Notes under the pieces: generated by a model
What the model was told of the DNA's origin: nothing
Seen by the model: only the letters and a program-made list of their open reading frames with translations
Database searches by the model: none
Assembly: GCA_036386615.1 (NCBI GenBank)
Contig: DASVVH010000213.1
Location: 1-35,922 of the forward strand
Source of the DNA: Ardenticatenaceae bacterium
GTDB taxonomy: Bacteria; Chloroflexota; Anaerolineae; Ardenticatenales; Ardenticatenaceae
Length of the DNA stretch: 35,922 bases
Reading direction: 5' to 3'
Shown here: in pieces, positions 10,186-10,383 of the stretch
Layout: each line of letters begins with the position of its first letter
Position numbering within the stretch: the first letter of the stretch is position 1
Made by a program: the position numbers and the translations under genes

Positions 10186-10383
10186 GGGCGGGATACGGGA
10201 TGCGGGATGCGGGATGCGGGATGCGGGATAACGGATTTTCACCACAAAGACACAGAGGACACAAAGAACAGCCACAAAGCATTATTTCGTTCTTCAAATA
10301 ATTCCCTTGCGTCTTTGCGTCCTTGCGTTGTGCCGTTGACCGTAGGTCGTTAGCGGTCGTCAGTCGTCGGTCGTCGTCCCTCC
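10186..10383. repeat. Composite mosaic repeat (module F2 plus reverse-complemented F1) filling the whole trmH-rlmE intergenic space
   Basis: GCGGGAT x6 at 10188-10229, then gataacggattttcaccacaaagacaca..., then gccacaaagcattatttcgttcttcaaa. Next come GTCCTTGC-type octamers at 10305-10330 and GGTCGTC heptamers at 10345-10379. It shares 28-32-nt identical blocks with 12861-13087. Confidence 0.9.

Follow-up and report, generated by a model that had tools for sequence, protein, structure and literature searches.

The question raised by the locus between rlmE and trmH in an Ardenticatenaceae bacterium (Chloroflexota; contig DASVVH010000213.1, of which the whole analysed stretch of 35,922 nucleotides is here called the window) is what kind of DNA occupies the gap between the two genes, and whether the transcript has any part in shaping it. 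The gap is 198 bp long (10186-10383), both genes are on the minus strand, and a composite of short tandem repeats fills the gap entirely. The element is real, multi-copy, modular, intergenic and fast in its turnover, and its window copies contain a hairpin that is strand-asymmetric. The interpretation favoured here, with a probability of about 0.6, is that the spacer is a non-coding mosaic palindrome of the broad kind represented by repetitive extragenic palindromes (REP), bacterial interspersed mosaic elements (BIME) and short tandemly repeated repetitive sequences (STRR), multi-copy and rapidly changing, constrained at the level of the transcript and with a putative function there. The most economical reading is a largely selfish or neutral element filtered by such constraints. 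The intergenic DNA of this uncultured soil bacterium is not random filler; it consists of a small vocabulary of micro-repeats with a simple and testable rule.

Structure of the rlmE-trmH spacer

Read on the mRNA (minus) strand, the composite (10186-10383) has the module order F, E, D, tip, B' and A. The UGA of rlmE is followed by GGAGGGA, (GACGACC)n, AACGG-type linkers, the D octamers, the tip, (UCUUUGUG)n GUGGUGAAAAU, CCGUU, (AUCCCGC)6 and finally CC-AUG. Tandem Repeats Finder (TRF) calls GCGGGAT in 6.0 copies at 10188-10229 (94%), octamers at 10305-10328 and heptamers at 10354-10376; program and sequence agree with the modules and positions given in a preliminary description of this DNA.

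All modules are given here for the minus strand. Module F (10355-10379, by TRF) is (GACGACC)~3.3 and begins 5 nt past the rlmE stop codon, with GGAGGGA before it. Module E (10328-10354, from the sequence) is a linker of AACGG/AACGA type, GCTAACGACCTACGGTCAACGGCACAAC on the mRNA strand, and is also present at 3364-3384, 12054-12083 and 13028-13057. Module D (10304-10327, by TRF and fold) is made up of the octamers GCAAGGAC and GCAAAGAC together with GCAAGGG and constitutes the 5' arm of the hairpin. The 3' arm is module B/B' (10235-10269), which reads ATTTTCACCAC(AAAGACAC)n on the plus strand and (UCUUUGUG)n GUGGUGAAAAU on the mRNA strand. Between the arms is the AT-rich tip (10270-10303), in which an inner mini-hairpin of 7 bp, AUUAUUU/AAAUAAU, is predicted by the folds. 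Module A with its junction (10188-10234, by TRF) is CCGUU(AUCCCGC)6 and ends 2 nt before the ATG of trmH; it is mostly unpaired in the minimum-energy fold, and on the plus (template) strand it reads (GCGGGAT)6, that is G3N4 six times, a motif of G-quadruplex type.

The positions at which D and B' depart from perfect complementarity are G/A changes only, and they are therefore compatible with G.U pairing on the mRNA strand. The core (10236-10335) folds at -39.1 kcal/mol on that strand with five G.U pairs, versus -20.7 kcal/mol with one G.U pair on the other. In the sister copy described below the hairpin reaches -70.5 kcal/mol on the mRNA strand versus -59.0 kcal/mol on the other, and the full-length sister copy folds at -96 kcal/mol (z = -5.5). 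A helix closing the spacer from stop to start in the minimum-energy fold, with GAGGAGGGA after the rlmE stop pairing with UCCCGCCC before the ATG, is given no weight because it is not conserved in the relative L122.

The upstream gene of the pair, rlmE (10384-11055, minus strand), encodes an FtsJ-family 23S rRNA methyltransferase (Pfam FtsJ, E 1.6e-54; also called as a gene on independent contigs), and its TGA at 10386-10384 is separated by 4-5 nt from the end of the repeat. The downstream gene (9376-10185, minus strand) encodes a SpoU methyltransferase of the trmH/rlmB family with Pfam SpoU_methylase and an MRM3-like substrate-binding domain. Its ATG is at 10185-10183, and only 2 nt separate the heptamer tract from it, so that the spacing reported earlier for both ends, 2 nt at trmH and about 5 nt at rlmE, holds in the sequence. 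The trmH start is conserved in the relatives L021, L023, L024 and L122 (M-I-T/S-S-T/A-Q-N).

The preliminary description had concluded from this spacing that the tract leaves no place for a Shine-Dalgarno sequence. The motif is indeed absent from the upstream 30 nt of the window copy, and a purine-rich motif resembling it precedes about 18 of 25 other genes of the window. However, the repeat is not the cause, as none of the four relatives has a Shine-Dalgarno sequence before the conserved ATG either; in L024 the spacer is 20 nt long and free of repeats, and trmH lacks the motif all the same, which shows that the repeat did not remove it. The repeat sits on a trmH start that already had no Shine-Dalgarno sequence. 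Such a start codon 2 nt from a C-rich tandem tract is a natural case for studies of Shine-Dalgarno-independent initiation.

A mechanical open reading frame (ORF) at 9376-10275 (minus strand, 299 amino acids) reaches 30 codons upstream of the trmH start, across the heptamer tract, and begins at a GTG. Tracts of this type can mislead automatic annotation into N-terminal extensions that are false or into spurious ORFs. A scan of the rlmE-trmH spacer for sigma-70-like promoters and intrinsic terminators found none. The 4227 covariance models of Rfam gave 0 matches over the whole window at gathering score, and at E <= 5 over 3.1-13.2 kb nothing was matched within the repeats.

Copies, turnover and polarity of the repeats

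The modules are far more frequent in the window than dinucleotide shuffles allow. With at most 3 mismatches, (GCGGGAT)3 has 9 matches versus 0.02 expected, (GACGACC)3 has 10 versus 0 and the octamer triplet has 5 versus 0. They are found at five places, which together represent three complete composites and an inverted half, four elements in all, and all copies are intergenic, as had been proposed. The second complete composite (12861-13087, minus strand) is upstream of an HD-domain gene (ATG at about 12785) and has the same modules with two insertions of a further module, X. It aligns with the rlmE-trmH copy in two blocks of 59 nt (92% identity) and 44 nt (93%) in identical order, which bears out the recurrence described earlier. 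The inverted half-element (12009-12128), with F, E, X and D on the plus strand, is between the stop of the HD gene and the start of a methyltransferase gene. It forms a 102-nt inverted repeat of 88% identity with 12985-13086, so the pair brackets the HD-domain gene. L122 has a shorter set of the modules of this half-element, and in L123 the set is without X.

The third composite (3302-3717, plus strand) is in the 5' region of accC (TTG at 3752). It has the order (GCGGAAT)3, F (3328-3363), E, D (3385-3422), GGGAATT, a centre of about 215 nt, CCGTT(ATCCCGC)5 (3645-3685) and (CTTTTTC)n. Its centre is different from that of the sister copies, holds a module of (GGCCAGTA) type and includes promoter-like hexamers at 3562-3591. 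Earlier, 3302-3423 and 3643-3686 had been listed separately in a count of four loci; these two are the ends of one composite with the same order and orientation, and the loci are better given as three complete composites with one inverted half. Relative to the rlmE-trmH copy, the F/E/D half is reverse-complemented at 3324-3427 and at 12009-12128, and the GCGGGAT tract is inverted at 3650-3685. The three composites share one orientation with respect to the downstream gene, F being distal and the A tract, C-rich on the coding strand, proximal to the start codon, at a distance of 2 nt for trmH, about 75 nt for the HD gene and about 65 nt for accC. A second repeat family is represented at 3470-3533 and 24958-25021 (64 nt, 80% identical) by GGCCAGTA-type decamers that follow a purine-rich GGGGAGG stretch; its 3470-3533 copy is inside the composite upstream of accC.

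The window is derived from a metagenome, and the possibility that low-complexity reads were collapsed during assembly has to be considered. One Logan contig terminates within the repeat, at 10350, and a perfect 49-nt palindrome closes the window. Against this, the window and contigs of ENA, JGI and Logan have 99.98-100% identity with no gaps across the repeats, the ENA and JGI assemblies run through every repeat without a gap and show 1-3 mismatches over 12-18 kb, and related strains hold homologous spacers. With three independent assemblies in gap-free agreement, an assembly artefact is refuted. The palindrome at the window end (35825-35922; arms 35825-35873 and 35874-35922, no spacer) looks less like a biological feature than like a fold-back artefact at the end of the contig.

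The modules occur widely outside the window as well. Contigs from soil and biocrust runs were aligned to 10231-10700, and summed depth was read in the run X1. The single-copy gene rlmE had a depth of 6.3, whereas module B (CACAAAGA) had 470-570, module F (GGTCGTC) 1260-1780 and the octamer module D about 124, that is 20-280 times the single-copy depth. The AT-rich tip at 10279-10294, with a depth of about 4 (4.1), is the sole part of the element at single-copy depth. The core of about 70 nt that had been called unique is thus unique in this tip only; the left 40 nt of the core represent a family with members in several phyla. In soil and biocrust, each run has more than 100 distinct contigs that match some part of the element and continue differently, and alternative joins were seen, such as B directly onto F and B followed by X. 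The A-B junction was not found in the first metagenome scan. Module B is also present with many different flanks in metatranscriptome contigs, which are unstranded and may include DNA. Modules of this kind break short-read assemblies and could serve as strain markers.

The nearest genomes by RlmE (74-67% identity) are metagenome-assembled genomes (MAGs) of Chloroflexia and Ardenticatenales. The orthologous rlmE-trmH spacer is filled in a completely different way in each relative. L021 has (AAAAGGC)n, (CCAATAT)n and (TCCATTC)n, the last adjoining the ATG, L023 and L124 have CACAAAGA-type hairpins, L024 has nothing and L125 has two extra genes. In L122, where RlmE is 96% identical, the spacer is 423 nt long and consists of a 93-amino-acid ORF and ...CCGTTGTCCCTC(ATCTCAC)2(ATCTCGC)3CC-ATG. 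The tract next to the ATG has been kept there with all its units changed in concert (ATCTCRC), and the F-E-D-tip-B' block is absent. The ORF (3697-3978 in L122) has a low GC content and no Pfam match, and occupies the place where the window has the repeat block. Judged from these comparisons, the turnover of the spacer is fast.

Differences in unit number between loci had been noted (6, 5 and 3), and they are confirmed by TRF as 6, 5 and 3.4. In addition, the orthologous spacer of a related strain in another run has a 7-nt indel, corresponding to one unit, within module E. The suggestion that the tracts are prone to slippage is compatible with these observations, but slippage alone is insufficient for the mosaic, because near-identical genomes differ by the gain or loss of whole modules and one of the modules is inserted as a discrete unit of 22 nt.

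A constraint that appears to act on the transcript is seen when tracts of different sequence are compared. TRF was applied to 16 Chloroflexota loci (about 150 kb), with ORFs supported by GC content at third codon positions and tracts of period 7-8. Of the tracts starting between -15 and +25 nt from a stop codon, 28/29 have a purine-rich sense strand (p = 1e-7); they comprise more than 15 different units, and one case is perhaps on a spurious ORF call. Of 20 tracts that end at most 40 nt from an inferred start codon, 18 are pyrimidine-rich (p = 4e-4), with start codons that were placed crudely. The rlmE-trmH spacer satisfies both halves of this rule. In relatives, perfect long palindromic composites, (GACGACC)n ... 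(GGTCGTC)n, are found between convergent genes, an arrangement that follows from the rule. The G-rich heptamers of Xanthomonas and Nostoc have the same geometry relative to ORFs (Rehm et al. 2015, PMC4692102), so that a polarity hitherto observed for one G-rich heptamer in these genera is now extended to Chloroflexota. From the pattern of purine-rich tracts after stop codons and pyrimidine-rich, G-poor tracts before start codons, a constraint on the transcript is inferred.

Arrays such as (GGGGGTGA)n occur on the sense strand directly after stop codons in L021 (2061-2127, 5849-5904 and 9862-9957) and in L096 (3560-3611). They resemble tandem Shine-Dalgarno sequences, and their complements, (TCACCCCC)n, resemble the 3' end of 16S rRNA.

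Modules X and B in other genomes

Module X is a sequence of 22 nt, CCAACAGTAGGCGCTTTAGGCG, of which the sister composite holds two copies (CCAACRGTAGGCGCTTGAGGCG) at 12924-12945 on the plus strand and at 13006-13027 on the minus strand. In alignment A2 both are missing from the rlmE-trmH paralogue as exact 22-column gaps. The copy at 13006-13027 (CCAACAGTAGGCGCTTGAGGCG on the minus strand) is common to the orthologous locus of L122, and the copy at 12924-12945 (CCAACGGTAGGCGCTTGAGGCG on the plus strand) is present in the window only and absent at the orthologous site of L122. A variant of X is at 12084-12105 in the half-element 12009-12128.

X is found in at least 94 loci of species-representative genomes and in at least 120 loci of metagenomes. 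Its hosts belong to about five phyla (Pseudomonadota, Acidobacteriota, Chloroflexota, Nitrospirota and Myxococcota). The matches listed include many Gammaproteobacteria, among them the isolates Exilibacterium tricleocarpae, Endozoicomonas numazuensis and Pseudomaricurvus alkylphenolicus, and also Polarisedimenticolaceae, a Chloroflexia MAG with at least 9 loci, Ardenticatenales, Nitrospirota and Haliangium; no cyanobacterium is among the matches listed. X is absent from E. coli genomes and has one weak match only in plasmid records. As strings in a full-text search of the literature, X and the module sequences returned an unrelated match and PCR primers only.

The precision of the insertion is evident in several settings. 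An alignment of a palindromic family of about 380 nt from gammaproteobacterial MAGs has several sites at which members with and without X differ by a gap of exactly 22 columns. In the Chloroflexia MAG it is in one arm only of otherwise perfect palindromes. At two sites it breaks the coding sequence of an IS91-family transposase (Pfam Y2_Tnp and Zn_Tnp_IS91), in one case in the conserved FSCK/HRGFCPSCG motif; the intact gene of L192 represents the empty state. In six interrupted IS91-family genes X is 98.5% identical, versus a mean of 71% for 120 flanking nt. From 106 distinct metagenomic flanks the target is GCA^ANGC with no target duplication, and the frequencies are 74% for G at -3, 74% for C at -2, 86% for A at -1, 95% for A at +1 and 72% for G at +3. 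X also occurs, perhaps as an insertion, in Endozoicomonas group II introns, whose copies without X have divergent but alignable sequence at that place. X is thus, on the evidence of these alignments, a precise and separable insertion module of the mosaic.

A gene that always accompanies X was not found when 1559 neighbouring ORFs were clustered. The IS91-family genes were considered as partners and rejected, as they are targets of X and not neighbours, and a weak Y1_Tnp-like ORF is close to X in one Acidobacteriota locus only. It is tentatively suggested, at somewhat less than even odds, that the mosaic arises by nested insertion of ultra-small mobile modules, with X as an undescribed site-specific element. 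More speculatively, X would be mobilised by new machinery, either an enzyme or a templated route of repair. If the suggestion is true, there is a mechanism that moves very small pieces of DNA and is unexplained by known transposases, and the origin and mobility of X are possibly new in kind.

The family of about 380 nt that harbours X at several sites has the termini CTAGTACTC...GAGTACTAG, many copies per genome and no Rfam match (sources include L039, L094, L045, L067, L079 and L040). Another observation concerns L057, an Endozoicomonas MAG, in which four group II intron D1-D4 segments are arranged in tandem with a period of 761 bp (4148-6808, minus strand) and a divergent copy containing X adjoins the array on the other strand.

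Module B has a similarly wide distribution. Its 22-mer GGATTTTCACCACAAAGACACA occurs exactly in 17 contigs of six phyla, for which about 0.07 chance matches of a random 22-mer are expected in that collection by our own estimate. The hosts are Azospirillum rugosum (7 contigs), A. canadense, Terriglobia and another member of Acidobacteriota, Opitutus and another member of Verrucomicrobiota, Planctomycetota, Anaerolineae, Thermoflexales and WOR-3. In these contigs GGATTTTCACCACAAAGACACA is an arm of hairpins of 100-130 nt with a variable centre, located mostly between convergent genes or directly past stop codons. Plasmid records contained no match to a hairpin of another phylum. Viral contigs contained a single match for a 21-mer of B and none for X, and a phage vector is therefore unlikely. 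The CACAAAGA-armed hairpins of the several phyla may have spread in the same way as X.

Proposed role, rival explanations and known systems

The element consists of tandem tracts of 7-8 nt, an octamer-armed hairpin and, in the sister copies, X, and its modules are gained and lost as blocks. Modules would spread by duplication or by ectopic recombination between copies, and the tracts would evolve by slippage and homogenisation. If the spacer is a transcript-constrained mosaic, its parts could act as follows. The spacer would be transcribed inside the rlmE-trmH message, where the D/B' hairpin might mark the 3' boundary of the rlmE segment as a protection or processing site. The (AUCCCGC)6 tract would hold the trmH start, which lacks a Shine-Dalgarno sequence, in an unstructured and G-poor leader, and the orientation of the A tract would keep the G-quadruplex-prone strand off the mRNA.

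Several observations weigh against this interpretation. The entire 211-nt spacer folds only marginally better than shuffled sequences (z = -1.36). The two hairpins of the window share their descent and therefore amount to about one observation, in L023 the antisense strand gives the slightly more stable form of the orthologous hairpin, and the hairpins of other phyla have no consistent strand bias in stability. The asymmetry between strands holds in the window copies but fails in these hairpins, and its value as general evidence that the RNA has a function has accordingly been downgraded. The statistic for tracts before start codons depends on starts that were crudely inferred, and the RNA runs are represented by assembled contigs that have no direction and possibly contain DNA. 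No mobilising enzyme has been identified. L122 manages without a hairpin at the spacer, from which it follows that the hairpin is not essential and that any function is dispensable; the element may be largely neutral or selfish.

A role at the level of DNA, with arrays of protein sites, G-quadruplexes or cruciforms organising supercoiling, the nucleoid or transcription, would account for the canonical G3N4 motif that (GCGGGAT)6 forms on the template strand and for the perfect long palindromes of relatives between convergent genes. Similar heptamers form G-quadruplexes in vitro (PMC4692102), and paired tandem octamer and heptamer sites in Geobacter have been annotated as regulator sites (PMC2700814). 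Yet units of 7-8 bp do not keep phase with the helix, the mismatches in the window hairpins are compatible with G.U pairing on the mRNA strand only, and dozens of unrelated units follow one transcript polarity, for which a constraint on RNA or transcription is a better fit than a single protein. This role is regarded as unlikely. A classical miniature inverted-repeat transposable element (MITE), that is a non-autonomous transposon with terminal inverted repeats that is moved in trans by a transposase and otherwise inert, is distinctly unlikely. The copies are dispersed, multi-copy, intergenic and hairpin-forming, they are present or absent at orthologous sites, an inverted pair flanks the HD gene, and the CACAAAGA-armed hairpins of other phyla look like inverted-repeat elements of 100-130 nt with a variable centre. 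However, none of the copies has a target-site duplication, the termini are not constant, and module orders and joins vary. The arms of the window copies are unlike (F-E-D versus B'-A) and only relatives have symmetric palindromes, no transposase gene was seen between matching ends in any 8-kb locus examined, and plasmid records gave no match and viral contigs one only.

Phase-variable control through the untranslated region, which the preliminary description had raised, is unsupported. A contingency locus in which slippage of the 7-nt tract alters that region and switches trmH expression would draw on the unit numbers (6, 5 and 3.4), the one-unit indel in the related strain and the position of the tract at the start codon. 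But unit numbers are identical in three assemblies from different samples, and the tract is without a recognisable promoter spacer or ribosome-binding element whose spacing could shift. Hundreds of such tracts are located past stop codons, where switching would be senseless, and a housekeeping methyltransferase is an improbable phase-variable gene; the explanation as a whole is quite improbable. A structured non-coding RNA gene, or a riboswitch or attenuator acting in cis on trmH, is very improbable. The strong sense-strand hairpin in the position of a 5' leader would suit it, but Rfam gave no match even at E <= 5, the orthologous site is unconserved even at 96% protein identity, and the same modules are found in unrelated gene contexts.

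The transcript-constrained mosaic can be compared with several known systems. The analogy to BIME/REP and STRR that was drawn earlier holds in that the architecture is alike and the sequences are unrelated; the element works like both but does not belong to either as defined by sequence. Like REP and BIME it is an extragenic mosaic of hairpin units and linkers between co-transcribed genes or at gene 3' ends, variable between close relatives and present in many copies, with an action, if any, that is probably exerted as an mRNA hairpin. It differs in its unrelated sequences and in its blocks, which are tandem tracts of 7-8 nt. The REP/BIME unit is an imperfect palindrome of 20-40 nt, one end of which is marked by a conserved GTAG (or CGTC) (PMC3733652). 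There is no GTAG-tagged palindromic unit of 20-40 nt in 10186-10383, and GTAG is present only within module X of the sister copy. A RAYT (REP-associated tyrosine transposase) was not found among about 20 window proteins scanned with Pfam, the genome being incomplete.

The STRR of heterocystous cyanobacteria, which Mazel and colleagues reportedly described in 1990, are said to be families of tandem heptanucleotides that are strictly intergenic, dispersed and of unknown function, the units of STRR1-3 reportedly being CCCCAGT, TTGGTCA and CAACAGT. Several tandem heptanucleotide families, intergenic and dispersed, are present here too. The units are different (GCGGGAT, GACGACC and GCAAGGAC), the host belongs to Chloroflexota, and the tracts are ordered around a hairpin and have a measurable transcript polarity.

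In Xanthomonas and Nostoc, heptamers of GGGNATC type have the G-rich strand antisense at most 50 bp upstream of an ORF or sense at most 50 bp after a stop codon (PMC4692102). The (GCGGGAT)6 tract at 10188-10229 is similar in having a G3 run per heptamer and at least 4 tandem units, with the G-rich strand antisense 2 nt from the trmH ATG, and its length and sequence also vary between close relatives. It differs in that its unit, GGGATGC (or GGAATGC), is similar but not identical, in being one module of a composite and in that the G-quadruplex is only predicted. In Geobacter metallireducens there are dozens of intergenic copies of inverted pairs of 3-5 tandem units of 7-9 nt with a variable centre, annotated without test as putative regulator-binding sites (Aklujkar et al. 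2009, PMC2700814). The CACAAAGA-armed hairpins have the same architecture but other sequences, and sharing across phyla was not reported for Geobacter.

Among described elements X comes nearest to the cyanobacterial small dispersed repeats (SDR), which are modules of 21-27 nt inserted precisely at a short target without duplication. They are also said to be nested in other repeats. X has another sequence and another target (GCA^ANGC), is spread over about five phyla where the SDR are cyanobacterial, and breaks IS91-family transposase genes. Of the individual families, SDR5 inserts precisely within HIP1 according to a statement in PMC4390886 that cites Elhai et al. 2008 (Genome Res 18:1484).

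The window has further features. A BrnT ribonuclease toxin gene (29079-29360, minus strand; Pfam BrnT_toxin, E 2e-30) is followed in the antitoxin position by a small ORF (28859-29095, minus strand) with no Pfam match, and the pair is in a low-GC stretch at 28.4-29.5 kb. Paralogous sensor histidine kinases with GAF, PAS and HisKA domains, one of them with CHASE, are arranged in tandem at 17627-20089 and 20209-22929, with another at 14187-16043 (all on the minus strand), and share DNA segments of 72-81% identity at an offset of 2576 bp. A gene for a protein of 963 amino acids with PA14, LTD and SH3 domains (250-3141, minus strand) has three direct repeats of 178 nt with a period of about 380 bp, within 1132-2071 and 699-942, as well as tandem repeats of 12, 33 and 45 nt, all inside the coding sequence. 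These are probably domain repeats and low-complexity repeats of a surface protein.

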